Shown here: positions 2,677-55,106 of the stretch, one piece after another
How the letters are laid out: every line of letters starts with the position of its first letter
Numbering within the stretch: position 1 is the first letter of the stretch
Assembly (NCBI GenBank): GCA_963823335.1
Contig: CAWGLD010000001.1
Coordinates: 736,001 to 800,000 of the forward strand
Direction: 5' to 3'
Length of the DNA: 64,000 bases
Source: an uncultured delta proteobacterium
GTDB lineage: Bacteria; Desulfobacterota; Desulfobacteria; Desulfobacterales; B30-G6
Position numbers and translations under genes: made by a program
Notes under the pieces: model-generated
What the model saw: the letters and a program-made list of their open reading frames with translations, nothing else
What the model was told of the DNA's origin: nothing
The model's database searches: none

Positions 2677-2747
2677 TTTACACGTTCTCCTCTCAAGAGA
2701 AAATCACCTGAAGTGATTTTATGTGATGCGGCTCGGCCGCTTTTGTA

Positions 2748-2975
2748 TTATCGAATCTTGACACCATGAAACGCTTTGAGCTGCATCATGCTACGCAGTT
2801 GCATCTGTGTCTGGCGCCCGCTCAATCCCCACATACTCACCTGTGGATACGCCGCAGCCTGAGGCCCCCGGGCACCTGCCTGGGCCTGCATGACCATGGC
2901 GCCGGCAATCTCTTCTTCCTCTTTGATATAGGCAAGCACAGCCGATGCCGCCGCGATTTTCTTTTTATTCTTCAT
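2748..2975 (-). CDS. Small protein, possible accessory subunit of the carboxyltransferase complex
   Basis: 75 aa with IAAASAVLAYI...W..SGR pattern reminiscent of acyl-CoA carboxylase epsilon-type subunits; RBS GAGGAA; lies between two carboxyltransferase genes. Confidence 0.6.
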   Translation of the reverse strand: MKNKKKIAAASAVLAYIKEEEEIAGAMVMQAQAGARGPQAAAYPQVSMWGLSGRQTQMQLRSMMQLKAFHGVKIR

Positions 2976-3036
2976 TGTTCCTCATCTTTCTTGAGCGGCA
3001 ACGCCGCGACACATAAATTTGTCCGCTAGGTCAAAC

Positions 3037-4590
3037 TTATACGGGTATGTTCCCGTGTTTCTTGGGCGGTCTGAGTTCTCGCTTGTTGCACATGATTTCG
3101 AGTGCTTCGATCAAGCGGGGTCTTGTTTCACTGGGAACGATAACTGCATCGATAAAGCCCCTGTTGGCGGCGCGATATGGATTTGAAAAAAGCGCTTCAT
3201 AGGCCGCGATCTTCTCTTCACGCTTTGCTTTTGGATTGTCAGATTGCTGGATCTCCTTGCGATGAATGATATTGGCCGCACCGGCAGCCCCCATCACCGC
3301 AATTTCCGCCGTCGGCCAGGCAAAGGCCATGTCGGCACCTAAATCTTTGGAACACATGGCCAGGTATGACCCGCCGTAATCTTTGCGTGTCACCAGCAGC
3401 AGTTTGGGCACCGTCGCCTCTGAGTAACACCAGAGAAGCTTGGCACCGTGACGGATAATCCCTCCCCACTCCTGATGACTGCCGGGCAGGTAGCCCGGTA
3501 CATCGGCGATGGTCAGCATGGGGATATTGAAAGCATCACAGAACCGAATAAACCGCGTGGCCTTGTCCGAAGCATTGATGTCCAGGCAACCTGCCAGTTC
3601 GCGTGGCTGATTGGCGATGATCCCGATGCTTCTGTTGTTGAGCCGGGCAAAACCCACGATAATATTCTTTGCAAAATACTGGTGGGGTTCAAAAAACTCG
3701 CCCTTGTCGACGATGGAGCGGATAACCGCTTTCATGTCGTAGGACTTGCTGGGGCTGTCCGGAATAATGGTATCAAGCTCCCGGTCTTTCCGGGAAGGAT
3801 CGTCACCCATATTTACCTGAGGCGCATCCTCCATGTTGTTGGAAGGCAGATAAGACAGAAGTTTCTTGATTTCACCAATGGCATCTTCATCGCTGTCACA
3901 GGCAAACTGGGCCACGCCACTTTTTGCGTTATGGGTCATGGCACCACCCAGATCCTCGAAGGTGATTTCTTCTCCGGTCACCGACTTGATCACTTCCGGA
4001 CCGGTGATGAACATATACCCGCTGTTTTTGACCATGAAAATCCAATCCGTCATGGCAGGAGAATAGACGGCTCCGCCGGCGGTGGGCCCCATAATGGCTG
4101 AAATCTGGGGGATGACACCGGAGGCCAGGGAGTTTCGGTAAAAGATCTGGCCGTAGCCGGAAAGGGCATCCACACCCTCCTGAATCCTGGCACCGCCAGA
4201 GTCATTGAGCCCCACAAAGGGTACACCGGCTTTGAGCGCCAGGTCCATGACCTTGCAGATTTTTTTGGCGTGCATCTCTCCGAGGCTGCCGGCCCGGGCA
4301 GTAAAGTCCTGTGAAAACGCAAAAACAGGGCGCCCATCCACCAGGCCATGTCCTGTGATAACACCGTCGGAAGGTATCTCCACCTCCGGCATACCGAAAT
4401 TGACACATCGATGGGTGACGAACATGTCGATTTCACGGAATGTTCCCGGGTCAAACAACAGGTCAAGCCGTTTCCTTGCCGTCAACTTGCCCTTTTCCTG
4501 TTGCTTGGCCACAGCTTTCTGGCCGCCCATTTCCAGGATCCTTGTTTCCCGCGCCTTGAGATCCTTTATTTTATCTTCAACGGTACCCAT
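3037..4590 (-). CDS. pccB: Methylmalonyl-CoA/propionyl-CoA carboxyltransferase subunit (12S/PccB/MmdA family)
   Basis: DSGGARIQEG, GGIIRHGAK and KKHGNIP motifs; 517 aa. Confidence 0.92.
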   Translation of the reverse strand: MGTVEDKIKDLKARETRILEMGGQKAVAKQQEKGKLTARKRLDLLFDPGTFREIDMFVTHRCVNFGMPEVEIPSDGVITGHGLVDGRPVFAFSQDFTARAGSLGEMHAKKICKVMDLALKAGVPFVGLNDSGGARIQEGVDALSGYGQIFYRNSLASGVIPQISAIMGPTAGGAVYSPAMTDWIFMVKNSGYMFITGPEVIKSVTGEEITFEDLGGAMTHNAKSGVAQFACDSDEDAIGEIKKLLSYLPSNNMEDAPQVNMGDDPSRKDRELDTIIPDSPSKSYDMKAVIRSIVDKGEFFEPHQYFAKNIIVGFARLNNRSIGIIANQPRELAGCLDINASDKATRFIRFCDAFNIPMLTIADVPGYLPGSHQEWGGIIRHGAKLLWCYSEATVPKLLLVTRKDYGGSYLAMCSKDLGADMAFAWPTAEIAVMGAAGAANIIHRKEIQQSDNPKAKREEKIAAYEALFSNPYRAANRGFIDAVIVPSETRPRLIEALEIMCNKRELRPPKKHGNIPV

Positions 4591-4785
4591 ATCTTGTTCC
4601 TTTCCTTAATAAATTCGTTGCACGAATTTATATGTCGCGACCTTGTCGCTTTAATAATAGAATTTTTAAGCCCTTGAGGCGAGTTCGCAAAGCGCCAGGG
4701 GATTATTCATTTCGCGTTTGCTGATCCCAGAAAGTTGCGTAATTAAGCTCAAATACTAAATACTCTCCTGGAAAAAGTTATCATT

Positions 4786-5838
4786 CTAAACCGTTTCTTT
4801 ATTGTCAAGCGAAAAAAGCAGTTCATCCGCCGCCGCCTTGGGGGCCATTTCGCCGGCCGCCACATGACGGGTAATTTCCCCAAGACGTGATGCGATTTCA
4901 GGATGTTTATAAAATCGCGACTTGAGACCTTCTTCCACCAGGGACCACATCCAGTCCACATCCTGCCTGCGCCGTTTACGATCCAGCTCACCGCTGTTGA
5001 CAACTATTTCCCGGTGCTCCAGAACAGCGGACCAGATTGCCTTTATACCTTCATCCTCCGGGTTCAGTGAACTGCAGGTCAATGCTCTGGGTGTCCAGGC
5101 AGGTGAGGCCGGCATCAGATAATGTAAGGCGGCTTCAATCTGTTTCCTGGCCATGTTCGCTTTTTCGACATTGTCACCGTCTGCTTTGTTGATGGCAATG
5201 GCATCGGCAACTTCCAGGACGCCTTTCTTGATACCCTGAAGTTCGTCCCCGGCACCGGCTATCATCAGCAGGAGAAAAAAATCGACCATAGATGCAACGG
5301 TGGTTTCAGACTGGCCCACACCCACGGTTTCGACGATCATGACATCGTAGCCGGCAGCCTCGCAAACCAGCATGGTCTCTCTGGTTTTTCTGGCCACGCC
5401 TCCTAGGGTACCCCCTGAAGGGGAAGGACGGATAAAAGCATTTTCGGTCGTGGACAATTTTTCCATACGTGTCTTGTCTGCCAGGACACTGCCACCGCTG
5501 CGCTGACTGCTTGGATCGACAGCCAGGACCGCCACCAGATGCCCCTGGTTGACCAGACAGGTCCCCAGGGTTTCGATAAACGTGCTCTTTCCGGCACCCG
5601 GGACACCGCTGATACCAAGCCGGACGGCATTTCCTGTATATGGCAGCAAGGCATTGACCACCGCCCGGGCAAGCTGCTGATGTTCATAACGGGCACTTTC
5701 GATAAGCGTAATGGTTTTGGCCAGAATCCGCTTGTCCCTCTGTCGCACGCCCCGGGTGTAATAGGATGGGTCCTTGAGACCGCTATTATCATTGCTTTTT
5801 AGCATACTGCCGTGCTTTATCTTTCTATAAAATAACAT
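4786..5838 (-). CDS. meaB: Methylmalonyl-CoA mutase-associated GTPase MeaB (true start may be 5805)
   Basis: GVPGAGKST P-loop, VDPSS, ETVGVGQSE, NKAD; adjacent to the mutase. Confidence 0.95.
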   Translation of the reverse strand: MLFYRKIKHGSMLKSNDNSGLKDPSYYTRGVRQRDKRILAKTITLIESARYEHQQLARAVVNALLPYTGNAVRLGISGVPGAGKSTFIETLGTCLVNQGHLVAVLAVDPSSQRSGGSVLADKTRMEKLSTTENAFIRPSPSGGTLGGVARKTRETMLVCEAAGYDVMIVETVGVGQSETTVASMVDFFLLLMIAGAGDELQGIKKGVLEVADAIAINKADGDNVEKANMARKQIEAALHYLMPASPAWTPRALTCSSLNPEDEGIKAIWSAVLEHREIVVNSGELDRKRRRQDVDWMWSLVEEGLKSRFYKHPEIASRLGEITRHVAAGEMAPKAAADELLFSLDNKETV

Positions 5839-5956
5839 CCATCACGAAAACACGAAACCTTGAAAACACGAAAAATTTATAGTCTTTTTCGTGTTTTCGT
5901 CCTTTCGTGTTTTCGTGATAAAAAAATTTACTTTTTCCCTATGAATTCGGGTGATG

Positions 5957-8080
5957 TCATTTTTCAAGTACATTCAATATCTTGTTGGCCGACTCCGTTA
6001 CCACCGTTCCAGGGCCGAAAATCCCTACGGCACCGGCATCATAGAGGAAATCGTAATCACCCGGGGGTATCACACCCCCCACCACCACGCGGATGTCCTG
6101 GCCCCCTTTTTTCTTGAGCTCTGATATGAGCTGGGGCACCAGGGTCTTGTGCCCGGCCGCCAGACTGGAAACACCCACCACATGGACATCGTTTTCCACG
6201 GCCATCTTTGCCGCCTCTTGGGGTGTTTGAAACATGGGACTGATGTCCACGTCGAACCCCAGGTCGGCAAAGGCCGTGGCGATGACCTTGATACCCCTGT
6301 CATGACCATCCTGTCCCATTTTTGTCACCAGAATTCTGGGACGTCGGCCTTCCCGTTCCATGAAATCATCGGTCCGTTTCCTGACGGATGCAAAGATTTC
6401 ACTGTCACCGTACTCCGATGCATAGACCCCGGAGATACACTGGGTGGTTGCAACAAACCGGCCGAAAACAGATTCCATGGCATCGGATATTTCACCCACC
6501 GTTGCACGCGCCCGAACAGCGGAAATACAGGCTTCCAGAAGATTCCCATCTGCTTCGGCCGCACCCTTGATATGGGCAAGCGCCTGCTGGACGGCTTTGT
6601 TGTCTCTGGCGTTCTTGATCTGTTTCAGTCTTTGAATCTGCTCGTCACGAACCGACTCCGAAACCGCCAGAACTTCGTCAAGGGGCTCTTCCTCGATCCG
6701 ATGTTTGTTTACCCCCACGATAACATCCAGACCCTGATCGATGCGCGCCTGCTTGCGCGCGGCGGATTCTTCGATACGCATTTTCGGCATACCGGTCTCG
6801 ATGGCTTTGGCCATCCCTCCCAGCGCCTCCACCTCCTGGATGATTTTGCGCGCCTCTTCGATGATACCACCCGTGAGGGCTTCGATATAATAGGAACCGC
6901 CAAGGGGGTCCACCACATGACAGACCTGGGATTCTTCCTGGATGATAATCTGGGTGTTTCTTGATATTCTGGCCGAAAAATCGGTGGGTAAGCCAACCGC
7001 CTCATCAAATGAGTTGGTATGCAGGGACTGGGTGCCACCCAGCACTGCGGCCAGGGCTTCCAGTGTGGTCCGGATAATATTGTTGTAAGGGTCCTGTTCG
7101 GTCAGACTCCATCCGGATGTCTGCACGTGGGTGCGCAGCATGGATGATTTCGGGTTTTTGGGATTGAAGGTGCTGATAAGTTCGTGCCACAGAAACCGGG
7201 CCGCCCGCAGCATGGCGATCTCCATAAAAAAGTTCATACCCACCCCAAAGAAAAAGGAGAGCCGCGGTGCAAAGGTATCGATATCGAGACCGGCAGCCAG
7301 GGCGGCTTTGACATATTCCAGGCCGTCCGCCAGGGTAAAAGCCGTCTGGAGAACCGAATTGGCACCGGCTTCCATCATGTGGTAACCGCTGATACTGACC
7401 GTGTTGTACTTGGGCATGTGCTGGGAGCAATAGCCGATGATATCGGATACGATCCGCATGGAGGGCTTGGGCGGATAGATGTAGGTGTTGCGGGTCAGGT
7501 ATTCCTTTAAAATATCATTCTGGATCGTACCGGCCAGCTGTTCCTGCTTTATGCCCTGTTCTTCCGCCGCAACGATGTATCCCGCCAGGATGGGCAGGAC
7601 AGCACCGTTCATGGTCATGGACACCGTCATCTGATCCAGGGGTATCTGGTCGAAGAGGACCTTCATATCCTCGACCGAATCGATGGCCACGCCGGCCTTC
7701 CCCACATCACCCACAACCCTCGGGTGATCGGAATCGTAGCCCCGGTGGGTTGCCAGGTCAAAGGCAACGGAAAGTCCTTTTTGACCGGCAGCGATGTTCC
7801 GCCGGTAAAACGCATTGGAGTCCTTGGCCGTCGAAAACCCCGCGTATTGTCGTATGGTCCATGGCCGCCCCGCATACATGGTTGCCATGGGGCCCCGGAC
7901 ATAGGGTGCAAACCCGGGCAGGTTGTTGACATGCGCCAGGTCTTCCAGGTCCTCGGCCGTATACAGGGGCTTGACCCGAATGCCCTCCGGCGTATCCCAG
8001 TTGAGATCGTCGACTGATTTGCCCCTCAGCTGCTTGGCTGCCAGTTCTTCCCATTGTTTCATATTCGGTTTTTCCGACAT
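5957..8080 (-). CDS. scpA: Methylmalonyl-CoA mutase
   Basis: [26 protein letters not shown] and GQDGHDRG B12-binding motif. Confidence 0.97.
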
Positions 8081-8216
8081 TCTGTCTCCCTCCAGTAATA
8101 AAATCGTTACACGATTTTATGAAACGCGACATGATCGCTATTGAAAAGGCGTAAAACCGCAAGCCGCTCAAAGCTTACAGCCCACCCTCCAAACCTGCTC
8201 TACCACCCCTCCAACC

Positions 8217-8621
8217 CTATGATCTTTCACATAACTCCACCAGCACACCATGGGTGGCTTTGGGATGCAGAAAAGCAATTTTGGCACCGCCTGCCCCTAT
8301 CCGGGGTGTTTCATCGATGAGGCGAACCCCCTTTTCCTTCAGCTCCGCCAGGGCTTCTTCGATATTGTCCACCCGAAATGCAACGTGCTGGATCCCTTCA
8401 CCCCTTTTTTCAATGTATTTGGCCACCGGTCCGTCCGGCGCCGTGGATTCCAGAAGCTCCACCTCGCTTTCGCTGACAGGGAAAAAGGCTGTGGTCACTT
8501 TCTGCTCGGTCACGGTTTCAGACCCCTCAAACGGCAGGCCTAAAATGTCCTTCCAGAATTTTTTACCCTGTTCGATACTGTTTACAGCGATGCCGAGATG
8601 GTCGATCTTTAAAATTTTCAT
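8217..8621 (-). CDS. mce: Methylmalonyl-CoA epimerase
   Basis: [20 protein letters not shown]...GVLVELCE; operon context. Confidence 0.95.
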
Positions 8622-8706
8622 TACGCATGCTCCTATCTTCTATTATCTATCATACATTCTTTGTTCGATGCCCTTATTGTCTCCATCAATCTTTTATGAA
8701 AATTTT

Positions 8707-9412
8707 GTCATTTGCTCCTGTGGAGCGATATTAGCTCCTGGCGGAGCGTCATTAGACTTCGTCGTCATTCATTCCTTCGGAATGTCATTAGCTTCTTCGA
8801 AGCGATATTTCGCTGCGCTGTAATTTGCTCCTTCGGAGCGTTATTTATTGTTTTTTGACAACCGATTGATTGAGCTAATGTAATTATTCAGTTTTACACC
8901 AAGCATGTCTATATCTCTCAACAGACTTTGGAAATCGGTGTCGTTGATTAATTTTCGTTTGTTACCCTTTTGTCAACCAGGTTCTTGGTCTCGAACAAAG
9001 ATCCTCTGGCAAAGTAGCTGAATTGTCTTGTTTCCTTGAAATGAAATCTGCCGAATCCTTCACTGATATTGGCTGCAATACGGAATCAGCAGCTCTTATT
9101 AACTGCTTGCCGATCGTACGCTTTTGAAAAATAATCCCATTCTTCAACAAGCCCCCATATATTTTCGCCCAATTTCCATGGACAGTTGATATATTTCCAG
9201 ATCCTCAAGTTTCAAAAAATCTCCCGTTACCGATTTAACCCACAATGAATGATCGACGAAGTCAAATATCGCTCCGCAGGAGCTAATTACTATCAATTAC
9301 AGCGAAGTTAAATATCGCTCCGCAGGAGCTAATTACCACAAATTACAGCGAAGCTAAATGACACGCCGTTAGGCGTTAATGTCGCTCCGAAGGAGCTAAT
9401 GACAATGAATGA
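8707..9412. mobile_element. Four-helix-bundle cassette with inverted flanks of short repeats and GCTCCGNAGGAGC hairpins
   Basis: Left flank ~8707-8840 and right flank ~9245-9412 carry the same motifs in opposite orientation. Confidence 0.55.
8841..9230 (-). pseudogene. Four helix bundle (23S rRNA IVP-like) protein, several frameshifts
   Basis: Fragments in different frames: KLEDLEIYQLSM, TIGKQLIRAADS, ANISEGFGRF, ARGSLFETK, LGVKLNNYI. Confidence 0.8.
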
Positions 9413-9477
9413 CCTTGATTTTCAATGTCCCTTCGTTGGGCCTAAGTATCATCAATTTCAATGAGGCTGTTGATATC

Positions 9478-10653
9478 CTATCGATATCCGTCCATCACCC
9501 GCTTAAAGCCCGGCATGGCCTTGACGATGGTGTCATCCGCCACGCAGAAGGCGATTCGGAAATGACCAGGCCCCATAAAGCCGCTACCTGGGACAACCAG
9601 GATCAGCTCCTCCTGCAGAGCTCTCACGAAGGCCACATCATCGGGGATGGGTGCTTTGGGAAAAAGATAAAATGCGCCGGGAGGTGTGATAAAATCATAG
9701 CCGCATTCCCGCAGGCCATCACACAACAGGTCCCGTTTACGCTTGTACAGGGACACATCCACACTCATCCCCTGCATTTCCGCCACCACCCGCTGCATCA
9801 GTGCCGGAGCGTTGACAAACCCGATAATGCGATTGGTCAGGGCCATGGCATTCATCAGGTCAGCTCTGTAGTCAGCCTGGGGATTGATTATGGTAAAGCC
9901 GATCCGTTCGCCGGGGATGGAGATGTCTTTTGAATAGGATGTTGCCATAATGCTGTTGCTGTAGCTGTCAAATATACAGGGTACGTGGGCATCATCGTAG
10001 ATTATTTTTCGATACGGCTCGTCCGCCACCAGGTAAATCGTTCTCTTAAACTGTGCGCTCTTTTCCTTCAAGAGCAGACCCAGGGCATCCAGACTGTCCT
10101 TGGAATAGACCTGCCCGGTGGGGTTGTTGGGTGAATTGATCAGAACAACTTTGGTCTTTTCGGTGACAGCGGTTGTCATGGCCTCCAGGTCCAGTGAAAA
10201 ATCGTCGCGGGTGGGCACGGTTTTAAAGACACCACCGTGGTTGTCGGTATAAAAATGGTATTCCACGAAACAGGGCTTTGGAGAAAGAACTTCATCACCC
10301 GGATCCAGTACTGCCTTGAGGATGATGTTCAAGGCACCGGCAGCACCGCAGGTCATGACCACATCATTTGCCGTAACGGAAACTCCCTGATCCCGCGAGA
10401 TATATTCAGCGATCTTTTCTCTGACATGGGGATAGCCTGCCTGGGGCATGTACCCATGCCCGCCGGTTTCCTTTACAATGTTTCTGAGGATCTGATCGAA
10501 TTTTTCCGGGGGTTCCAGGTTTGGATTTCCCAGACTGAAATCAAACACTTTTTCAGCTCCGTGTTCCGCTTTGAGGCGGGCGCCCTCCTCAAACATTTTT
10601 CGAATCCAGGATGACCTGGTCATAAACGCTTCGATTTTTTTGGAAATGGTCAT
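9478..10653 (-). CDS. PLP-dependent aminotransferase class I/II (aspartate aminotransferase-like)
   Basis: INSPNNPTG, DEPY and SYSKDISIPGERIG motifs. Confidence 0.93.
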   Translation of the reverse strand: MTISKKIEAFMTRSSWIRKMFEEGARLKAEHGAEKVFDFSLGNPNLEPPEKFDQILRNIVKETGGHGYMPQAGYPHVREKIAEYISRDQGVSVTANDVVMTCGAAGALNIILKAVLDPGDEVLSPKPCFVEYHFYTDNHGGVFKTVPTRDDFSLDLEAMTTAVTEKTKVVLINSPNNPTGQVYSKDSLDALGLLLKEKSAQFKRTIYLVADEPYRKIIYDDAHVPCIFDSYSNSIMATSYSKDISIPGERIGFTIINPQADYRADLMNAMALTNRIIGFVNAPALMQRVVAEMQGMSVDVSLYKRKRDLLCDGLRECGYDFITPPGAFYLFPKAPIPDDVAFVRALQEELILVVPGSGFMGPGHFRIAFCVADDTIVKAMPGFKRVMDGYR

Positions 10654-10765
10654 TTACTTTACCTCCATAAATTCGCTGCGCGACTTTATTTGACGCGACG
10701 GTGTCGCTTATTTATTATAAATTCCGGGCCCATAAACCAAGTCAAGGTAAGACGCTAAGACTGAT

Positions 10766-10949
10766 GGATGATCCCTGAACGCCTGTGAAACTGTTTGAGT
10801 TCTTTAGTGCCTGTTATGCAGAACAGCATGATACTTATCGTATGGATTGAAATATAGCTGCTCAAACCGAAACTGTCTTTAAATTTTGGCTTTGTTCGGC
10901 ATTACAGACACTTTAGAACGAGTTTTTCACAGTCGAGCAGGGATTATCC
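10766..10949. repeat. 184-bp element with long imperfect inverted ends (MITE or structured RNA); diverged partial copy at ~16742-16880
   Basis: GGATGATCCCTGAACGCCTGTGAAA pairs with TTTCACAGTCGAGCAGGGATTATCC; reverse complement aligns with 16742-16880. Confidence 0.7.
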
Positions 10950-11005
10950 AAGCGGTCGCAATATTCCCCTTCTTTTCGTTTATAGTTCCGTAAATATTTG
11001 GACTA

Positions 11006-11239
11006 TTATGCTGGTACCACTGCCGTCACTTCCGGAATCTTATCTTTCAAAACCTTCTCGATGCCGTTTCGCAGGGTCATCTGCGACATGGGACACCCGG
11101 CACATGCACCCTGAAGCCTCACTTTGACAACCCCCCCGTCGATGCTCACCAGTTCTACATTCCCCCCATCCCTCATGAGCATGGGTCTGATCTCGTCCAG
11201 TACTTTTTCGACTTTTTCCTTCATGACAACCCCCTTCAA
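11006..11239 (-). CDS. NifU family protein (likely start 11224)
   Basis: [12 protein letters not shown]...LQGACAGCP (CxxC). Confidence 0.92.
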
Positions 11240-11465
11240 TAGCTAAAGACACAAATCACAATACACAAACTCCAAATTAATGCCGCCCCTCAGTTGTGTC
11301 TCGCTCAAAATCAAAGAACAAGACCTTTTATCACGAAAACACGAAATCTCGAAATAGATCAAAAATATTTTCGTGCTTTCTAAATTTCGTGTTTTCGTGA
11401 TTGGGTATATTTTTTTCTTTTCAAAACAGAGAGACTATCTATCCAATACGATAGAATGTTATGTG

Positions 11466-12614
11466 TTATCCAGATTCTCTTTTGTCATAAAAATCTTTTT
11501 TAAAGGCTTCATACCTGTCCCCCTGGATTGCCACACGGATCTGCTTCACCAGGTCCAGATAATAATGAAGATTGTGGAGCGTGTTCAATCGGTATGCCAA
11601 CAGTTCCCGGGCCTGATATAAGTGCCGCAGGTATGCTCTGGAATAATGCGTACAGGTGTAACACGCGCATCCATCGTCAACAGGATTTGTATCGTACTTA
11701 AACCGGGAATTGCAAATGTTAATTGTGCCCGAATGGGTGAAAAGCTGCCCGTTCCTGGCATTTCTGGTGGGTATGACACAGTCGAACATATCCGCTCCCA
11801 TGCCCACCAGCTCCACGATATCCTCAGGTGTCCCCACCCCCATGATATACCTCGGCAGGTGGTCCGGGAGACGCGGAATCGTCCAGGCGGACATCTCGCG
11901 CATAAGATCCTTGGGTTCCCCGACACTCAATCCACCCACGGCATAACCTGGAAATCCGATTTCCATCAGGTCCGCCAGTGATTTTTGGCGCAGATCTTTG
12001 TACATGCCGCCCTGAACGATACCGAACAATGCACCTCCGGTTTTGTTTTCGTTCCAGGCGGTCTTACAGCGCCTGGCCCAGCGGGTCGTAAGCTCAAGGG
12101 CCTCTAAGGTCTCGCCCCTGTCTGCAGGATAGCGGGTGCACTGATCCAGGCACATGATAATATCCGAATCAAGGCAGAACTGAACCTGCATGGATTTTTC
12201 AGGGGAAAGCAGGTGGCGGGAACCATCGAGATGCGACTGAAACGCGTAGCCCTCCTCTGTTATCTTGGCCAGCTTGGCCAGGGAAAAAAGCTGAAAGCCA
12301 CCGCTGTCGGTCAAAATAGGTCCTTGCCAATGCATGAAGCGGTGGAGCCCTGAAAAAAGATCGATAATGTCACAACCCGGTCTGAGATAGAGGTGGTAGG
12401 TATTGCCCAGAATGATTTGTGCGCCACAGGCAGACAACTCCTCCGGTGTTACCGACTTGACCGACCCCAGGGTACCCACCGGCATGAAGATGGGTGTTTC
12501 GATGTTACCATGGGACGTTTGGATGATGCCTGTTCTGGCGCTGGTTTCTGATGAGCTATGTATGCGTTTAAAAGAAAACATAAGCCGGTTTGCTTCCCAT
12601 CTGTTTTTACTCAT
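11466..12614 (-). CDS. tgt: tRNA-guanine transglycosylase
   Basis: FMPVGT, GNTYHLYLRPG, TDSGGFQ and zinc-binding CxCxxC. Confidence 0.97.
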   Translation of the reverse strand: MSKNRWEANRLMFSFKRIHSSSETSARTGIIQTSHGNIETPIFMPVGTLGSVKSVTPEELSACGAQIILGNTYHLYLRPGCDIIDLFSGLHRFMHWQGPILTDSGGFQLFSLAKLAKITEEGYAFQSHLDGSRHLLSPEKSMQVQFCLDSDIIMCLDQCTRYPADRGETLEALELTTRWARRCKTAWNENKTGGALFGIVQGGMYKDLRQKSLADLMEIGFPGYAVGGLSVGEPKDLMREMSAWTIPRLPDHLPRYIMGVGTPEDIVELVGMGADMFDCVIPTRNARNGQLFTHSGTINICNSRFKYDTNPVDDGCACYTCTHYSRAYLRHLYQARELLAYRLNTLHNLHYYLDLVKQIRVAIQGDRYEAFKKDFYDKRESG

Positions 12615-12840
12615 TGTTATTACTTAAGAATTTTGTTCAAAACGAACCGCAGAATGTCGAACAAGGAATATCGAATTTCGAAGTGTTTTCTATTACTTCT
12701 GCAGTTCAAAATTTCTTGTTCGATATTCGATATTTCCTTTAAATTGATAAGATCATTAACGTTAATGCAATTGGGCAAAAGCCAGATCTAAGGGCTTACC
12801 CCTCGAACCCTTGTATCACCCTTCAACCCTCAAACCCTTT

Positions 12841-13896
12841 CTATTGAATCAACATCGCATCCCCATAGCTGTAAAATCGATACTTCTCCTGGATGGCGGT
12901 TTGATAGGCGGCAAGGATATTGTTTCTTCCCGCAAAGGCCGATACCAGCATGAGCAGGGTCGATTTTGGCAGATGGAAATTGGTTATCATGGCATCGATG
13001 GCCCTAAACCGGTAGCCAGGATAAATAAACAGATCACATGGCCCGGTCATGGATCTCATGTTGCCGTCATCATCACTGGCAAACTCCAGGGTTCGAACAG
13101 AGGTCGTCCCCACAGCCACCACCCGCCGACCCTCTTGCCTGGCACGGGAAATTGTTTCTGCGGTCTTTTTTGGAATCGAGAACCATTCTGAATGCATACG
13201 ATGGGCCCGGATATCTGCCACCCGGACAGGCAAAAAAGTCCCATGTCCCACATGCAAGGTAATCGGCGCCAGAGTAACGCCTTTGTCCCTGAGCCGGTTC
13301 ATGAGCGTTTCCGTAAAATGAAACCCGGCCGTAGGTGCGGCGACAGCACCTTTTTGAGACGCATAGACCGTCTGGTACGTTGTGCTGTCATCCCTTTCGC
13401 ATTGCGCCCCCTCCCGTTTGATATACGGCGGCAGGGGTGTCTGACCGATCCTGTCCAGTACCGACTCAAAATCACCCTCACACGAAAAAGACAGCGTGTA
13501 AATGTCGTCCCTCCTGTCCACTACCTGCGCCGTCACCCCTTGCGAAAAATACAACCGGGTGCCGATTCGGGTCCGTTTGGATGATTTCAACAGGCAGTCA
13601 AACTGATTCCCATCGGCGGAAGACCGCATGCCTGAAGCATAGTTCACTATCAGCGCTTCTACACGCCCGCCACTTTCTTTTTTGCCCACGATTCGACCGG
13701 GGATCACCCGGGTATTGTTTACCACCAGCACGTCAGACGGTTCCAGAAACGTTTCCAGTTCATGAAATTCCCGATGGGAAAGACTTCCGGTGCTGCGATC
13801 CATCACCAGGAGTCTGGAATGATCTCTTTGCTGCAGGGGTTGCTGTGCAATCAAGTGTTCAGGCAGGTGATAGTGATAATCTTCTATGGAAAACAT
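12841..13896 (-). CDS. queA: S-adenosylmethionine:tRNA ribosyltransferase-isomerase
   Basis: PLPPYIKR, GAVAAPTAG, TNFHLPKSTL, RFYSYGDAM. Confidence 0.97.
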   Translation of the reverse strand: MFSIEDYHYHLPEHLIAQQPLQQRDHSRLLVMDRSTGSLSHREFHELETFLEPSDVLVVNNTRVIPGRIVGKKESGGRVEALIVNYASGMRSSADGNQFDCLLKSSKRTRIGTRLYFSQGVTAQVVDRRDDIYTLSFSCEGDFESVLDRIGQTPLPPYIKREGAQCERDDSTTYQTVYASQKGAVAAPTAGFHFTETLMNRLRDKGVTLAPITLHVGHGTFLPVRVADIRAHRMHSEWFSIPKKTAETISRARQEGRRVVAVGTTSVRTLEFASDDDGNMRSMTGPCDLFIYPGYRFRAIDAMITNFHLPKSTLLMLVSAFAGRNNILAAYQTAIQEKYRFYSYGDAMLIQ

Positions 13897-14085
13897 GGGT
13901 CGTTTATCGTGTTTAGTGTTTCGTGTTTGGTCCGCTGTATGTCAAGCCTGGTTGTTTTCTGATAATAGTAACTCATCACGAAAGCACGCACGAAGTATCC
14001 GTAAAGGATAAATCTGGAAAACACGAACTTTGATTTAGTTTTTCGTGCTTTCGTCCTTTCGTGTTTTCGTGATGAACGTTCTTAT

Positions 14086-14228
14086 TTGAAGAACCTCGCA
14101 GCAAGCTACGAGGAATGTTCTGCCGTACGGCAGTGCTGCGCATCGACCGTAAGGAATTCTGTCTAATTTAGATTCGCTCGCTAACCCCGCAGCAAGCTAC
14201 GGGGAATGCGCTCGCTGTTGCGGTTCAA
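14086..14228. repeat. Dispersed repeat (TTGAA...TTCAA) with CGCAGCAAGCTACG(A/G)GGAATG core; other copies at 53064-53115, 53962-54015, 57207-57315
   Basis: Direct sequence similarity among four loci. Confidence 0.8.
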
Positions 14229-14230
14229 TG

Positions 14231-14434
14231 TTAGCGCTTTCCGATATATACCAAAAAGAGACCCAGACCCATAAGAATCAGGCCGGTACGTCGCAACTGC
14301 AGGTCCGGCATTTCAATTACCTTTCGAACCCAGACCTTCATCTTGTCCGGAAATGCAAAATAGGGGATTCCTTCAACAATCATGACCATGCCCAGAACGC
14401 ACAGGAAAAATTCCATTCTCCTCCTCTTTGACAC
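14231..14434 (-). CDS. DUF2065 family small membrane protein
   Basis: LGMVMIVEGIPYFAFP...LRRTGLILM pattern. Confidence 0.85.
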   Translation of the reverse strand: MSKRRRMEFFLCVLGMVMIVEGIPYFAFPDKMKVWVRKVIEMPDLQLRRTGLILMGLGLFLVYIGKR

Positions 14435-14674
14435 CTTGATTGATCTGTCTCGTGGGCTCTATAGAGCGTTAAACAGGACACTGTCAAACAACCGCTCGAA
14501 CTTGTAAACTTTTTTTATATCGTCTATGCATTGTTATTGTCAAAATAAAATCGTGGTACGATTTTATCTGGCGCGGCTACGCCGCTATGACTCTAATTAC
14601 ATGATTTACATAAATTGCTTAGAGTGTCTATTCTTTACAATACTGGGTATTGATGATAAATTAGTTGGATTCTC

Positions 14675-14887
14675 ATGGAGCGATTGATGAAATCAGACAG
14701 ACTGGATAAAATAGCCGTTCAGATTTTCAAAATGGACGAAGCGCCAACGGATTTTACATACTGGCAAGCGCGGCCCTATGAAGAGCGCCTGGCTGCGTTG
14801 GAATCCATCCGAAACGATTACATAAAGTGGGCATATGATATTCAACCAGGATTTCAGAGAGTTTATCGAATCGTTAAACAAGCATAA
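14675..14887 (+). CDS. Small hypothetical protein, putative partner of the downstream nucleotidyltransferase
   Basis: YWQARPYEERLAALE motif; overlaps the start of the nucleotidyltransferase remnant. Confidence 0.6.
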   Translation: MERLMKSDRLDKIAVQIFKMDEAPTDFTYWQARPYEERLAALESIRNDYIKWAYDIQPGFQRVYRIVKQA

Positions 14888-15024
14888 CGTCCGATTATGC
14901 TTCACGAGAAGAGATTGATATAGAGGGATTAAAAGTCAACCTAATCGATCTTAACCACTTGAAAATAAATAAAATAGCAACCGGCCGGCACCAGGACCTG
15001 GCTGACCTGGAAAACCTAACATAG
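14835..15024 (+). pseudogene. Internally deleted nucleotidyltransferase-like gene
   Basis: N-terminus MIFNQDFREFIESLNKHNV joined out of frame to C-terminus LKINKIATGRHQDLADLENL. Confidence 0.65.
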
Positions 15025-15124
15025 AAGTTCTTCTCATCACGAAAACATGAATCAATTTTTAATCCTTTTTCGTGTTTTCGTCCTTTTGTGTTTTCGTGAT
15101 AAAAATTATAAAACAGGATAAGAT

Positions 15125-16561
15125 ATGCATTTTGAACCCGTTATCGGGCTGGAAGTCCACGCCCAGCTGAAAACCAACACCAAGATATTCTGCAGTTGCT
15201 CCACCGAATTCGGTGCCCTCCCCAACACCCACATCTGCCCTGTATGTCTCGGCATGCCGGGCGTTCTGCCGGTTCTCAACAAAAAGGTCGTGGACTTTAC
15301 CCTGCGCATGGCAGTGGCCACCCATTGCGCCATCGACCGGGTCAGCCGCTTTGCCAGGAAAAACTATTTTTACCCGGACCTTCCCAAAGGATACCAGATT
15401 TCCCAGTACGAGCTTCCCATTGCCCAGCACGGGTTTGTCCACATCCAGATGGACGACATCCGCAAACGGATCGGCATCACACGCATTCACATGGAGGAAG
15501 ATGCCGGAAAACTGATTCACGACCCCCACAGACCCGTCAGCAAAGTCGATTTCAACCGCACCGGTGTGCCCCTGATGGAAATCGTCAGCGAACCGGATCT
15601 TCGATCCCCCCGGGAAGCCGGCGCCTACCTGAGACAACTGCGCTCCATTGTCCGCTATCTCGAAGTCAGCGACGGGAATCTGGAAGAGGGCAGTTTCCGC
15701 TGTGATGCCAATGTCTCCATCATGCCGCAGGGCTCTGCGGAATTTGGAACGCGTGCTGAAATCAAGAATCTAAACTCTTTCAAGCACGTGGAAAAAGCGC
15801 TTCAATACGAAATCGAGCGTCAGAAAGAACTTCTGCTGGACAATGGCAAGGTCGTCCAGGAGACCCGGCTCTGGGATGCCGACAAGGGCAGGACCTTTTC
15901 CATGCGCGGCAAGGAAGATGCCCACGATTACCGTTATTTTCCAGACCCTGACCTGCTGCCCCTGGTCATCGATGAAGACTGGATCGAGACCGTCAGGCGC
16001 GCCCTTCCCGAGCTTCCCGATGAAAAGCAGGATCGCTTCAGGACGACCTATGGGCTCTCGGACTACGATGCAGACCTGTTGACCACCAGCCGCGAGATGG
16101 CCGACTATTTTGAAGCCTGCCTGGCACTTTTCGATCAGCCCAAGCAGGTCAGCAACTGGGTCACAGGCCCCCTGCTGGGGCTTTTGAATGCGCAGGCAAC
16201 AGATATTTCCAGCACCCCCATATCCCCACCGATGCTGGCAGAGCTGCTGCAGCTCATCGATGAAGGCACCATCAGCACCACCATTGCCAGAACTGTTTTC
16301 GAAGAGATGGCGACCTCGGGAAAACCCGCCCGGCAGATCGTGGCGGACAAAGGCCTGGTGCAGGTCACGGATACCGGGGCCATCGAAACGGTGGTCCGGA
16401 ACGTGCTGTCCCGGTCTGAAAAGGAAGTGGCGGCCTACAGGAACGGCAAGACCAAGCTCATGGGATTCTTTGTGGGCCAGGTCATGCGGGAAACCAAAGG
16501 CAAGGCCAACCCCAAGATCGTGAACGAGATATTACGGGAAAAGCTGGGGGGTAAGAAGTAA
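15125..16561 (+). CDS. gatB: Asp/Glu-tRNA amidotransferase subunit B
   Basis: [33 protein letters not shown]. Confidence 0.98.
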
Positions 16562-29127: not shown

Positions 29128-29274
29128 AATCCATAGCCTTATGCGTTAATAAATCGTTGCCGATTTTATTTTCGTGGATTGATTTTATGCGATCCTAAAC
29201 AAATAACAATGAAAATGTCGACGTGAAGGGAATAATGGCTTTTCTTTAACAAGTCAAGGGGCTTTGATTCGGTC

Positions 29275-40670: not shown

Positions 40671-40980
40671 GCGGATGCCTCCTTTATTTTTACCGTTTAT
40701 AACAACCAGATATATTTGCGCTTTCCAAATGATAATTCCTACAGAACTGCCATTTCATTGTCAAATAAAATCGTTACACGATTTTATCAGACGCGGCGGT
40801 GCCGCTCTTAAGGGTCCACATTTGGCGACAGATAAATTTATCCTGGGCGGTGCGGGGACGTATAGGTCGTGATGCCGACAATTAGCCGGGCAAGGGATAT
40901 TTAGATGATAACAAAGGGTTAATATCTCTCACAGAGACCACAGAGTCGCAGGGAAATATTTTTTTCTTTTCTTTTTAGGA

Positions 40981-46238: not shown

Positions 46239-46438
46239 CTACTTCCTCCGGAGCAGTCGTCGTTATCAACATCAAGTTTTATTTGCGTATGAATTAAGTA
46301 TAGAATGAAGGGTCTTTAGGTGTCAACATCCCAATGCCATTAACTTAATGATGTAGCGCAGAGCTTTAGCTCTGCTCATGCCAAGTCTTGGCATGTCTAA
46401 AGACCTGCGCTACAATATATAAACCAGTTTACTAATAC

Positions 46439-47516
46439 GGGACGTTCGTGCAGAACATTCACAACTCTAAATCGATGTCATCGATATCCGGCATTGGTCC
46501 TGCCGATATCAAGCGTGTCACACAAGAGTTGCCAACACCAAGATATCTCGCAACATCAGCACCGGAATAGCCGAGTTCTCTGACACCAATCCATGACATG
46601 GCACGCCTGGCTTGCACAACTGCCCTTCTTCGGCCTCCTGACCGAAGTTCACCAATAGAAACATTGTACTTTTCAGCCACTTTTTCGGCAAGCGCTTTCA
46701 TATCTATGCGCTGCCCGGAAAGCCTTAAGTTCTTTTTTACAAGATCATCGAGACCCGATATGACCTGTTTGACAAAATCTCCATCACCCAGTATGCGCTG
46801 GTCAGCCACCTCTTTTGCACCACGCCTGCGCATAGCGAGAACCGCAGACCAGCCGCCCATGCTCCGTATTAACCCTCCGCCCACCAATTCCGGCCTGCGG
46901 CCTTGATCAACACCTTCTTTTACGTATTGCAGATAATTCTTTCTCGAATTGCCGGATCTATTGAAAAAAGACAGCACATACTCCGTGTTCTGCCACTTCC
47001 TCTTAATTTTACCCGTAAGTGCTGAGTGACCCGACCAGGGATTTCGATTCAGCGCCTTCATATCTTTCACAAGACCCGCCCGCAAAAGATTCAGGTGAAT
47101 ATATCGAACCAGCTCCTTGAGATAAACATCCTCCTGGCAAACAATGGATTTGTAGCGGTTTTGAAATAAATGCCCGTATCTCTTATGACGCCTGTTAAAA
47201 TTTACGACATAGCCGGTAAGCAATCTGCGCATGCTATCGGCCAACGGTAAATTTTTTGTCTTACAAAGCAGATGAAAATGATTCGGCATCAACACCCAGG
47301 CATAGATTTCCATCGCTCCATCTATCGCCAGTGATGCCAGGCGGTCTATGAAATCATTGCGATCCATATCGCTATAAAATATTTTTTTTCGCTCGATGCC
47401 CCGGCCCATTACATGGTGCAACACGCCTGGCGCATCCAATCTTGCTAATCTCGGCATATTATGATATGTCCCATATTGAACATCATTCTTCAAGCACTTT
47501 CTGCACGAACGTCCCC
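46439..47516 (-). mobile_element. Element with 17-bp terminal inverted repeats encoding a Y1/HUH transposase
   Basis: GGGACGTTCGTGCAGAA at 46439-46455, inverted copy at 47499-47515. Confidence 0.85.
46459..47457 (-). CDS. Y1 (IS200/RAYT-like) HUH transposase with C-terminal HTH
   Basis: MPRLARLD, HHVMGRG, MPNHFHLL, GHLFQNRYKS, VRYIHLN; C-terminal DnaA_C-like HTH. Confidence 0.9.
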   Translation of the reverse strand: MPRLARLDAPGVLHHVMGRGIERKKIFYSDMDRNDFIDRLASLAIDGAMEIYAWVLMPNHFHLLCKTKNLPLADSMRRLLTGYVVNFNRRHKRYGHLFQNRYKSIVCQEDVYLKELVRYIHLNLLRAGLVKDMKALNRNPWSGHSALTGKIKRKWQNTEYVLSFFNRSGNSRKNYLQYVKEGVDQGRRPELVGGGLIRSMGGWSAVLAMRRRGAKEVADQRILGDGDFVKQVISGLDDLVKKNLRLSGQRIDMKALAEKVAEKYNVSIGELRSGGRRRAVVQARRAMSWIGVRELGYSGADVARYLGVGNSCVTRLISAGPMPDIDDIDLEL

Positions 47517-48611
47517 TTTTGAATCTTTGACTCTGGAAAGCAGGTGAATGTTCGGCATCAACACCCAGGCATAGATTTCCATCGCTCCATCTATAGCCAG
47601 TGATGCCAAGCGGTCTATGAAATCATTGCGATCCATATCGTTATAAAATATTTTTTTTCGCTCGATGCCCCGGCCCATTACATGGTGCAATACGCCAGGC
47701 ACATCCAATCTTGCTAATCTCGGCATAGTATGTATGTCCCATATTGAACATCATTCTTCAAGCACTTTCTGCACGAACGTCCCCTTATACTTCAATCTTG
47801 CTAATCTCGGCATATTAGGTATGTCTCATATCAAACATCATTCTTAAAGCACTTTCTGCACGAACGTCCCCTTTTACGGTGAGCAATCTGCGCATGATAG
47901 CGGCCAAAGGTAACATTTTTGTCTTGCAAAGCAGATGAAAATGATTCGGCATCAACACCCAGGCATAGATTTCCATCGCGCCTTCTATAGCCAATGATGA
48001 CAGACGGTCTATAAAATCATTGCGATCGTTATCGCTATAGAATATTTTTTTTCGCTCGATGCCCCGACCCATTACATGGTGCAACACGCCCGGCGCATCC
48101 AATCTCGCTAATCTCGGCATATTATGAGTGTCCCATATTGAGCATCAACCGTCAAGCACGTTCTGCACGAACGTCCCCTTAAACCTGACGCCAGGCGCAT
48201 CCAATCTCGCTAATCTCGGCATATCATGTAGTTCTCATTCTAAATATCGACCGTCAAGCACGTTTTGCACGAACGTCCCCTTCTTTTCCCATTACATGGT
48301 GCAACACGCCAGGCGCATCCAATCTTGCTAATCTCGGCATAGTATGGTTGTTTCATTTTGAATATCATTCGTCAAGCACGTTCTGCACGAACGTCCCCTT
48401 TTTTTCACACCGCGCCTTCTATGGCCAGTGATGCCAGGCGATCTATGAAATCACTGCGATCCATATCGCTGTAAAATATTTTTTTTGCTCGATGCCCCGG
48501 CCCATTACATGGTGCAAAACGCCTGGCGCATCCAATCTGGCTAATCTCGGCATATCATGTAGGTCTCATTCTAAATATCAACCGTCAAGCACGTTCTGCA
48601 CGAACGTCCCC
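47517..48611 (-). repeat. Tandem array of six 3'-truncated copies of the transposase element's 5' end
   Basis: Units 47517-47784, 47785-47871, 47872-48178, 48179-48280, 48281-48398, 48399-48611; each starts GGGGACGTTCGTGCA on the minus strand and includes ATGCCGAGATTAGC. Confidence 0.92.
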
Positions 48612-53802: not shown

Positions 53803-54047
53803 GCTACTCTCCTGTTTAACGCCACTATAAACCTATTGCCATATCGACAAAGTGACAAGCCCCAATTTTTACCCATAAATACCGTATGGTATCTGGGTGT
53901 TTTACAGATTAAAGGAATGTTGTCTTTTTTGGTGGGACACTATCTGATGGAACGCCAGTGATTGAAGACCCTCGCACCAAGCTACGGTGAATGCGCTCGC
54001 TTTTTTTCGGTTCAGCACGTGAAAACAGCAGCAGATTTCTGGATGGA

Positions 54048-54398
54048 TCATTTGGACATAGCAGCGATGGCGCTTTCAACATCATTGTGAATATTGGCAA
54101 ATTTGGTGATGCCCACCATGTTGAATATTTTTTTAAAATGCTCGGACAGACCCGTAATGCTGATCTGTTGATTGTTCTTTTTGGTTTGAGCTAGAATCTG
54201 GATCAGGACGGCAATGCCGCCGCTGTTGATATAGGCGCCTTCTTCAAGATTGAGTAATATTTTTTCGGTTCCCTGGTCATTGGCATCTTTGTAGGCTTGA
54301 TTGAGAAACGGCTCGGAAAAGGAAGTGACATCTCCCTGTATCTTCAAAATGACAACCGACCCGTATTTTTCGAGTACTATTTCATTCTTGTTTTGCAT
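54048..54398 (-). CDS. STAS-domain anti-sigma factor antagonist (RsbV/SpoIIAA-like)
   Basis: YINSGGIAVL phospho-Ser motif; KIFNMVG. Confidence 0.92.
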   Translation of the reverse strand: MQNKNEIVLEKYGSVVILKIQGDVTSFSEPFLNQAYKDANDQGTEKILLNLEEGAYINSGGIAVLIQILAQTKKNNQQISITGLSEHFKKIFNMVGITKFANIHNDVESAIAAMSK

Positions 54399-54405
54399 AT
54401 TCAGC

Positions 54406-54855
54406 CTACGCTTTCATTTTAAGGACCATTTCAACCACATGGCCTCTACCTGCGCCCTCTTTGAATTCCACCTGATCTGCCAATTGCTCGATCAAAAATA
54501 AGCCGAAACCGCTCAAAACCTCATCTGCCTCGATTATTTTTTCGATGTCAGGACTCGGTGGTCTTTCCTTGATACCATCTCCTTCATCCGTTACCCACAC
54601 CCGAATGGTGTCGTTTTGGCAGAGCATGGAAACAATGACTTTTGCATCCACGCGCCCCTTGTTCCCGTGCTGCATGGCGTTAATGGATGCTTCCGCCACG
54701 ATGGTCTTTAAATCTTCGATACGGTCTTTGGGAAAGCCGAACATTTCTGCAAAGGATGCAGAGCATGCCATTGCGATGCGTTCATAGCCTATCTGGCTGG
54801 TCAATATGATCTCTACGGTTCTTTCAGCTTGATTTTCCGACATATTTATCGTCAT
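54406..54855 (-). CDS. Anti-sigma factor Ser/Thr kinase (RsbW-like)
   Basis: EASINAMQHGN, VTDEGDG, GFGLFLIEQLADQV. Confidence 0.92.
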   Translation of the reverse strand: MTINMSENQAERTVEIILTSQIGYERIAMACSASFAEMFGFPKDRIEDLKTIVAEASINAMQHGNKGRVDAKVIVSMLCQNDTIRVWVTDEGDGIKERPPSPDIEKIIEADEVLSGFGLFLIEQLADQVEFKEGAGRGHVVEMVLKMKA

Positions 54856-55106
54856 CCGCTAGACTAAGACCTGTACTGAGTGATTTTTATCTCGATCTGC
54901 ACCAATCTCTTCGGGAAAAATCGCTCAGCTTAGCTCAGGTAAGACTTTGATTCATTTTTAGATCCTAACTTTAATAATTCATTTTAAGGAAAGAGAAATC
55001 ACAAGTCAACATAAATAAAACCGTGTGCCGATTTTATGAAACACACCCTTGTCACTCCGCCCACCAAAGGTAAAAACAATGGTTCTAAAGTTAAGAATCG
55101 ATGAGA

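Follow-up and report, generated by a model that had tools for sequence, protein, structure and literature searches.

A polar two-hairpin repeat, probably REP-like, at gene borders of uncultured Desulfobacterales

A 64,000-nucleotide stretch of the genome of an uncultured delta proteobacterium of the order Desulfobacterales (assembly GCA_963823335.1, here G000, 4.37 Mb in 11 contigs; positions 736,001 to 800,000 of contig CAWGLD010000001.1, here C1), referred to below as the window, carries the same short motif of two hairpins upstream of several core genes, which raises the question of what kind of element it is. A preliminary description had offered three readings, namely a structured element of 5′-untranslated regions (5′-UTRs), a protein-binding site or an unrecognised class of repetitive extragenic palindromic (REP) elements. 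Most work on REP-type repeats, which are abundant, comes from alpha- and gamma-proteobacteria, and what they do and how they spread is for the most part unsettled. Our analysis confirmed that the motif is a genuine dispersed repeat with ~180–200 copies per genome, nearly all of them intergenic. Very probably it belongs with the REP-like elements, as a structured dispersed repeat without genes of its own in uncultured Desulfobacterales: it is short, forms hairpins, lies outside genes in hundreds of copies, is restricted to a lineage and has no match in Rfam. On the same grounds the last of the three readings is the best supported.

Two hairpins kept by compensatory change

A strict expression for both hairpins found 118 copies in the genome. 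A profile built from copies across the genome gave 310 non-overlapping matches, comprising 150 with both hairpins, 62 that were nearly complete, 79 with the first hairpin (H1) only, of which 31 scored at least 16 bits, and 19 with the second hairpin (H2) only. Copies scoring at least 20 bits were taken as near-full (n = 182); these were spread over the contigs, and the midpoint of 180 of them lay outside the genes called by a rough gene finder.

The consensus of the 118 strict copies was A-ATAAAATCGT-TNC-ACGATTTTAT-yTGAC-GCGAC-NTT-GTCGC-T followed by a T-rich tail, the whole unit being ~48 nt long, with conservation ending at both borders of the alignment. H1 is an A/T-rich hairpin (ATAAAATCGT/ACGATTTTAT) of 23–25 nt in all, with a 9–10 bp stem that opens with an A-T and a T-A pair and in which ATAAA/TTTAT is almost invariant. 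Its loop is 3 nt, or 5 nt if the variable closing pair is included, with a length range of 3–6 nt. In size H1 falls within the 20–40 bp of the imperfect, hairpin-forming palindromes that are typical of REP elements. The 5-nt spacer yTGAC separates H1 from H2, a G/C hairpin (GCGRC/GYCGC) with a 5 bp stem and a 3-nt loop. GTCGC was followed by T in 113 of the 118 copies and then by the T-rich tail; at the other end the base beyond H1 was A in 85 of the 118, after which the flank was variable. On the minus strand CGTC (GACG on the plus strand, 62/118) or CGTT (AACG, 43/118) includes the last base of H2 and is separated by 2 nt from the H1 that follows. The copies were mostly single and not arranged as inverted doublets, and the fixed polarity of the two hairpins allows every copy to be oriented.

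Folding of three window copies, among them the one at 4608–4654, predicted two hairpins on either strand (−11.9 to −19.1 kcal/mol; z −2.65 to −4.36). An alignment of 130 copies of the genome revealed four base pairs that switch between Watson-Crick states (AT84/TA36, CG103/TA16, TA76/CG35 and, in H2, AT90/GC36), with 111–126 of the 130 copies paired at these positions compared to 69–94 expected under column independence. The four switches were found in nearly every combination and two subfamilies therefore cannot account for the covariation. In a second alignment of 49 sequences (six window copies and 43 distinct profile-found copies in the loci of relatives) 95.4% of cells were paired, compared to 89.1% in shuffles, and 58 cells had changed on both sides, compared to 21.3; neither value was reached in any of 500 shuffles. 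Shifting the partner by one to three columns lowered the pairing in this alignment to 33–48%. These tests show that both stems are kept by compensatory change, among paralogues and orthologues alike, and bear out the covarying stems and variable loops of the preliminary description.

This co-variation bears on the possibility that the motif is an operator, in which H1 would be the double-stranded site of a dimeric DNA-binding protein, such as a global regulator or nucleoid protein, and H2 a second site. H1 is a perfect 9–10 bp inverted repeat in which the arm sequence itself is conserved, not merely its pairing, and nine of the 182 near-full copies lie directly upstream of TTGAC. However, a dimer that reads its half-sites independently needs no co-change of the arms, and at three positions the arms do change together (111–120 of 130 copies Watson-Crick compared to 69–94 expected), as they likewise do between orthologues. 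Additionally, the loop flips and varies from 3 to 6 nt in length, and promoters are not where most copies are found; these lie at stop codons or in the spacers of co-transcribed genes. We consider an operator quite improbable; of the proposed protein-binding site, the plain double-stranded form is unlikely because the arms change together, but a hairpin-binding protein is conceivable.

Flush placement of H1 at gene borders

Each edge of the 182 near-full copies was scored for the feature that it abuts, with open frames of at least 80 codons required. The H1 edge had a stop codon overlapping it or within 3 nt in 74 copies, a ribosome-binding site (RBS) and start codon within 25 nt in 50 and TTGAC within 14 nt in nine, and none of these in 49. 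At the H2 edge the same test gave 2, 11, 2 and 167 copies respectively, and at 2000 random intergenic positions it gave 49, 230, 29 and 1692. In stop-facing copies the stop codon was often the element's own TAA within AATAAA, and in start-facing copies TTTAT(T) was followed immediately by an AAGGAGG-type sequence and ATG. Copies consisting of H1 only also abutted borders, and a single H1 was sometimes the entire junction between two cistrons. The same zero gap was seen at tRNA genes: tRNA-Gln starts at L260:220, directly after the H1 end at L260:219, and in G015, a genome of another family, H1 starts at L236:1541, next to the 3′ (CCA) end of tRNA-Ser at 1542. Among 30 of the 63 strict copies of G015 that were examined, 12 were stop-facing, eight start-facing and 10 neither. 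The unit is polar: these data show its H1 edge flush against a stop codon, an RBS, a −35 box or a mature tRNA end, and its H2 edge facing variable spacer.

Both orientations occur inside operons, as short-spacer copies were found in both classes. Of 37 RBS-adjacent copies, taken by gene-caller distance, 32 had a co-directional upstream gene, which was within 40 nt in 10 cases, and nine stop-facing copies had the next start within 40 nt. The idea of a cassette, a gene held between inward-facing copies, was dropped, since two genes were bracketed in this way compared to ~2 expected by chance.

A cis-regulatory RNA, that is, a 5′-UTR motif controlling the translation of the downstream core genes, would agree with the five copies named in the preliminary description, which stand 14–24 nt upstream of a start, and with the 50 of 182 copies genome-wide that precede an RBS, positions that are conserved in orthologues. 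However, more copies (74) stand at 3′ ends in the opposite orientation, others are at tRNA ends and −35 boxes, the polarity of the loop is independent of transcription, the neighbouring genes are functionally unrelated, and Rfam gave no match to the motif at the gathering score or at E ≤ 1. As gene-end-facing copies are at least as many as gene-start-facing ones, the 5′-UTR reading holds for a subset of positions but does not fit the family, and we regard it as very improbable.

Stop-facing copies could instead be intrinsic terminators, formed by H2 and the T-rich tail (with H1) and placed directly behind genes. The 74 copies that begin at or on the stop codon have the order H1, H2, T in the downstream direction, T follows GTCGC in 113 of 118 copies as the start of a T-rich tail, and a terminator scan flagged H2 in two of the five full window copies within 1–16000. 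The H2 stem is, however, only 5 bp, 50 of the 182 copies point against transcription, ~19 fill short spacers inside operons, and terminator-like matches in region 1–16000 numbered 19, compared to 18.2 in shuffles. The tail is no richer in T in stop-facing copies (5.15 T per 9 nt, n = 53) than in start-facing copies (5.36, n = 28), in whose mRNA it precedes the hairpin. As the T-rich tail is equal in all classes it is part of the element and not a locally selected terminator tract, and a role as class-specific terminator signal was ruled out for it. Terminators are therefore an improbable explanation. No consistent −35/−10 pair was seen by eye within the element; a promoter scan placed one promoter-like site over a copy (10690–10718), with totals of 24 sites against 17.2 (sd 4.2) in shuffles.

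Within the window, the H1 pattern ATAAAWTCG-N5-CGAWTTTAT, with up to two mismatches, matched at 4609, 8098, 10667, 14545, 40765 and 55015, that is, six times compared to 0.01 expected by chance, and none of 100 shuffles reached six. The genome-wide profile was then run on the window and the nine places reported earlier were read separately, and by these two means the six full copies and the inverted degenerate copy were located where they had been described. Copies lie on the plus strand unless stated. The copy at 2701–2744 (19.9 bits) has the variant H1 stem AAATCAC/GTGATTT and, by reading of the sequence, an H2 of GCGGC-TCG-GCCGC at 2728–2740; its H1 edge is ~24 nt from the start of a transcarboxylase 5S-type gene (664–2676, minus strand). 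The inverted degenerate copy on the minus strand (2992–3040) scored 26 bits over H2 and spacer (2992–3022), its H2 being read as GCGGC-AAC-GCCGC at 2995–3007, and its degenerate H1 (3013–3040) overlaps the stop codon of a carboxyltransferase gene (3037–4590, minus strand). The RBS of this same gene directly follows the H1 of the full copy at 4608–4654 (49.4 bits; H1 4609–4631, H2 GCGAC-CTT-GTCGC 4637–4649). At 8097–8142 (41.1 bits; H1 8098–8120, imperfect H2 8126–8138) H1 is directly followed by the RBS of the methylmalonyl-CoA mutase gene (5957–8080), and at 10666–10713 (47.5 bits; H1 10667–10689 with one mismatch, H2 10695–10707) it abuts the RBS of an aminotransferase gene (9478–10653).

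Two further full copies abut a TTGACA box rather than an RBS. At the H1 edge of the copy at 14543–14588 (45.8 bits; H1 14545–14567, H2 14573–14585) the minus strand reads TTGACA-18 nt-TATAAA, and at that of the copy at 40763–40810 (55.9 bits; H1 40765–40787, H2 40793–40805) TTGACA follows on the minus strand, upstream of an ETF-domain gene (39888–40670). Of the two places described as H1 only, the one at 55013–55056, with an H1 of ATAAAACCG...CGATTTTAT (one mismatch) and a decayed H2, was recovered by both pattern and profile (12.9 bits, H1 part only, 55013–55042). The other, the short copy ATAAATCG-TTGC-CGATTTTAT at 29149–29169, was seen by eye only, below the profile listing; it is ~22 nt from the start codon of the ArgRS gene (27463–29127). 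For the copies at 2700, 4609, 8098, 10667 and 29149 the measured distance from H1 edge to start codon was ~14–24 nt in one orientation, which agrees with the five copies close to minus-strand starts of the preliminary description. Pfam names for the neighbouring genes were transcarboxylase 5S-type, carboxyltransferase, MeaB, methylmalonyl-CoA mutase, epimerase-like glyoxalase-fold protein, aminotransferase and ArgRS.

RNA evidence came from Logan contigs of four metatranscriptome runs, in which stretches without cover prove nothing. These contigs extend over the operon, and copies of the element are contained in some of them; RNA contig X11 record 7 spans 10208–10711 and reaches into the copy at 10666–10713.

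Other repeats were found in and near the window. A ~270-bp repeat (10717–10995) adjoins the 10667 copy on its H2 side and has copies elsewhere in G000 (e.g. C1:1838208–1838440) and in relatives; an RNA contig has 271 other letters in its place. A ~95-bp palindromic repeat at 5826–5935 and 11313–11430, between the MeaB and mutase genes, had dozens of copies of 76–92% identity on both strands in the sister-genus genomes G010 and G012, and its microRNA-type Rfam matches were all sub-threshold and look like chance. At 14086–14228 lies a 143-bp dispersed repeat with an internal variable part (14133–14197) and many copies of 90–99% identity in G000 and the genus genomes, partial in G010. The summed RNA-contig depth in this bin was 118–355 in two of the four metatranscriptome runs and 7.6–14.5 in the other two, compared to ~0–40 elsewhere, and the repeat may represent either the gene of a small RNA or a mobile repeat with high transcription. 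Outside the window, a ~132-bp repeat at L157:4708–4839 (G000:C1:1878342–1878473) occurred at 12 other places in G000 with 97–100% identity, five of them at 100%, a sequence similarity that suggests a recently active small element. Repeats of ~146 bp at L154:4320–4468 and L154:52–197 (G000:C5) were present at many places in G000 and the genus genomes with 93–98% identity.

Persistence, distribution and mode of spread

Fifteen sites in three regions were compared with nine other genomes of the genus, and for 12 of them an orthologous spacer could be aligned in one genome or more. Of 63 genome-by-site comparisons, 43 had the element and 20 lacked it. Identity to the G000 copy, taken from 26 ungapped comparisons, was 91.2% for the H1 stems and 95.0% for the H2 stems, compared to 59–67% for the loops, 71.5% for the spacer, 71.2% for the tail, 34.6% for the 30 nt beyond the tail and 88.4% for flanking coding sequence. 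The 2700 site had an orthologous copy in all six alignable genus genomes, with the compensatory stems AATCAC/GTGATT, AATCGC/GCGATT and AATTGC/GCAATT; outside the genus, G012 had a copy in which H2 is split by an insertion, and G010 an H2 remnant. Likewise, the 2992–3040 copy was kept in four of four alignable genomes, the 4609 copy in four of four aligned genomes, its loop being flipped in some (GCGAAGC vs GCTTCGC), and the 10667 copy in six of six. The 8098 site was polymorphic: six genus genomes had other sequence there, and G001 and G008 had degenerate copies that were recognised by eye. In G015 no copy stood beside the three orthologous gene starts examined. The comparisons show that copies persist at the same sites across the genus and partly across the family. 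The spacers beyond H2 (window 4650–4786 and orthologues) were hypervariable between species, with runs of AAACACC/AAATACC words, which extend over 400 nt in G007, and other inserted repeats.

The exact H1 pattern was counted in 41 genomes of the order. The 10 genus genomes, G000 included, had 19–132 matches each, five genomes of two sister genera 1–7 each and G015 102; of the other 25 genomes, 23 had none and two had one or two. A reversed-pattern control gave no match in any of the 41. The family is lineage-restricted and patchy across the order. The strict two-hairpin pattern occurred in at least 111 stretches, and among 80 listed records the titles were nearly all of uncultured Desulfobacterales, Desulfobacteraceae, 'delta proteobacterium' and Thermodesulfobacteriota metagenome-assembled genomes, including Ca. 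Desulfatibia and an Olavius symbiont; three bore other labels. Rfam at the gathering score returned a tRNA as the sole match in the whole window and nothing on the element, and at E ≤ 1, over window 1–16000 and eight loci of other genomes, nothing fell on the window element. One sub-threshold match covering the element in L041 (27.8 bits against a gathering score of 51.4, E 0.18) looks like chance. The Rfam result is consistent with an unrecognised class.

The element also has a strand polarity of its own. On its plus strand the H1 loop was Y-N-Y in 86 copies and R-N-R in 23, and this ratio was 34:10 in stop-facing, 23:4 in start-facing and 29:9 in other copies. With 33 ambiguous copies left out, 102 copies had their plus strand on the strand that is locally richer in C and 44 on the one richer in G (p ~2e-6). 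Among stop-facing copies 24 of 58 were on the leading strand, compared to 61.5% expected from gene orientation (p 0.003), and the start-facing class had a GC-skew strand bias of 27/31 (p 0.003). Loop polarity and skew orientation are thus shown to follow the element and not transcription, and from the loop polarity together with the 102:44 bias we infer a strand-specific DNA stage.

Such a bias, which resembles that of IS200/IS605 (available text of PMC6006769), would also fit an active miniature transposon, either a miniature inverted-repeat transposable element (MITE) or a palindrome-associated transposable element (PATE) derived from IS200/IS605, moved by a transposase encoded elsewhere and placed by target choice. 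The patchy distribution across the order, the 20 of 63 orthologous comparisons that lack the element, a site in G002 without exactly the element, and the 63 strict copies of G015, none of them at the three orthologous gene starts, all favour movement. H1 and H2 are, however, dissimilar and the copies share no common flanking tetranucleotide; stops, RBSs, −35 boxes and tRNA ends have no DNA motif in common that could serve as a target. Moreover, the copies are old, with few near-identical pairs and many at orthologous sites. An active transposon consequently has a low probability.

For the REP-like repeat we propose the following course, its mode of spread and function being inferred. The unit would have originated, and would be recognised, as a strand-specific DNA hairpin structure, whose minus strand, in the order A-run, H2, CGTC/CGTT and H1, would belong to the template for lagging-strand synthesis. 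It may have been spread in trans by an enzyme not encoded beside it, as is assumed for CGTC-type REPs. Survivors would then have been kept in that the symmetrical H1, once in mRNA, could serve either way round as a cistron-border hairpin, be it for protection of ends against RNases, translation-coupled control at stops or as a 5′ shield by the RBS. On the strand-specific DNA step our judgement is evenly divided, and an RNA border function of the H1 hairpin is suggested tentatively, with the balance somewhat against it. The combination of a REP-like repeat, a strand-specific DNA origin and an RNA border role is nevertheless the best explanation of the whole, and one we hold to be rather probable.

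Several observations weigh against this explanation. In G000 itself, where the preliminary description had suggested a search for an HUH nuclease gene flanked by the motif, none was found: there were eight Y1_Tnp (PF01797) matches, including three in the window, without a copy of at least 20 bits within 4 kb of any of them, and the only copy-like match nearby scored 12.5 bits (E 0.43). As 40 of the 41 genomes of the order had PF01797, its presence does not tell carriers of the element apart, and a 192-aa RAYT-like Y1 protein of the window was not found in seven of the nine genus genomes, nor in G015. The G002 site was the one clean empty site, its junctions (TA / CA) fit insertion with or without a target duplication, and a search of eight further sites found no additional one. 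Pairwise differences among the 130 copies were near the column-shuffled null and give weak support for recent movement; together with a small excess of near-identical pairs (17 with at most two differences, compared to ~1.8 expected), this indicates that most copies are old and few recent. The strand assignment is made by GC skew within an 11-contig assembly. The wobble test, in which A-C on the plus strand numbered 37 and G-T 20, is weak, and its 20:11 in stop-facing copies misfits a simple RNA reading, as the plus strand is the one transcribed there. The RNA contigs cannot show where transcripts start or end. Finally, neither a known insertion mechanism nor simple selection explains the flush placement on the H1 side only.

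The Y1_Tnp genes had repeats of their own. Those of 325–347 aa that combine Y1 and HTH carry GGGGAC-type inverted repeats. One Y1_Tnp gene of 344 aa (46459–47493), which also matches Bac_DnaA_C weakly, is flanked by inverted GGGACGTTCGTGCAGAA repeats. Upstream of it stands a run of more repeat units and of 5′ pieces of genes, one of them a truncated paralogue of 101 aa (47815–48120). By analogy the layout of this region (window 46433–48402) is of the TIRYT type; subclass 2.1 'TIRYT' genes are described, in the available text of PMC6006769, as carrying their own inverted repeats. The 192-aa RAYT-like gene (23774–24352) has a GTAG-headed palindrome, TGTAGTTCAGGGCTTCAGCCCTGCA, just downstream (region 23742–24352) and two more copies of this palindrome inside its open reading frame (23948–24018). 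As a candidate for the cognate enzyme of the two-hairpin element it was rejected, there being no co-occurrence with the element across the 41 genomes.

The flush placement raises a further possibility, namely that H1 is a border module, a strand-polar hairpin put or kept at zero gap to any functional RNA boundary, which we consider rather unlikely. If true, one option would be that insertion or trimming is guided by a mechanism able to sense the borders of functional sequence. The other would be a genome-wide cistron-border RNA function, selected at ~200 sites since the family diverged, by which mRNA ends might be sealed against RNases or termination coupled to downstream initiation. A functional border placement would represent a common way of arranging operon junctions in these anaerobes, and a mechanistic one would reflect an undescribed targeting or trimming process. 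The function and spread of REPs are testable in this system, which offers a single-base flush end at four kinds of boundary in two bacterial families and old orthologues with compensatory changes. In annotation, the repeat is a marker of true gene ends and starts, and it accounts for conserved 'motifs' upstream of unrelated core genes.

Comparison with known repeats

In Escherichia coli, REP/BIME elements act as mRNA 3′ stabilisers and, when near a stop codon, as modulators of translation. The element described here resembles them where, inside an operon, a stop codon is immediately followed by its hairpin. E. coli REP/BIME elements are not known to stand flush before RBSs or to form a fixed two-hairpin unit.

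The ends of IS200/IS605 elements carry hairpins that are similar to each other. Unlike these elements and PATEs, the repeat has no linked transposase gene and no constant target tetranucleotide, and its H1 and H2 are dissimilar. According to the available text of PMC6006769, IS200/IS605 elements, which have subterminal hairpins, work on DNA in single-stranded form and are oriented with respect to the lagging-strand template; the 102:44 bias of the present element relative to GC skew is a likeness to them and to PATEs, as are its hairpins.

The GTAG REP/REPIN elements with their RAYT (TnpA-REP) are likewise structured, extragenic, lineage-specific and vertically persistent. The present element differs from them in that it lacks a GTAG head and a doublet organisation, and no RAYT was flanked by it. 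A GTAG-type system coexists in the same genome, in the form of the 192-aa Y1 protein and the GTAG palindromes.

A literature search for REPs in Desulfobacterales found nothing relevant. The account of GTAG- and CGTC-tagged REPs by Di Nocera, De Gregorio & Rocco 2013 (PMC3733652), which in its available text mentions neither 'delta' nor 'Desulf', gives stems of 8–9 bp starting with A/T pairs and loops of 4–5 nt. According to that text no dedicated transposase is known for the CGTC type; REPs lie near the 3′ ends of open reading frames, and their termini can supply stop codons. CGTC REPs are described there as having an unpaired CGTC (TGTC/CCTC) at one end of the palindrome and a short unpaired tail, mostly CCA, and as forming mainly head-to-head dimers. 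Compared to this description, the present element has its putative tag 2 nt from the H1 stem, overlapping a second G/C hairpin that this text does not mention, lacks the CCA tail, occurs mostly as single copies and stands flush before RBSs, −35 boxes and tRNA ends, a placement of which the text likewise says nothing. It shares with CGTC REPs a short, extragenic, high-copy hairpin, a stem of comparable length that starts with A/T pairs, a small loop, closeness to gene ends and termini that can provide the stop codon, and its CGTC or CGTT beside H1 may correspond to their tag. By analogy with their description, the element fits best as an undescribed variant of REP elements that would be closest to the CGTC REPs.

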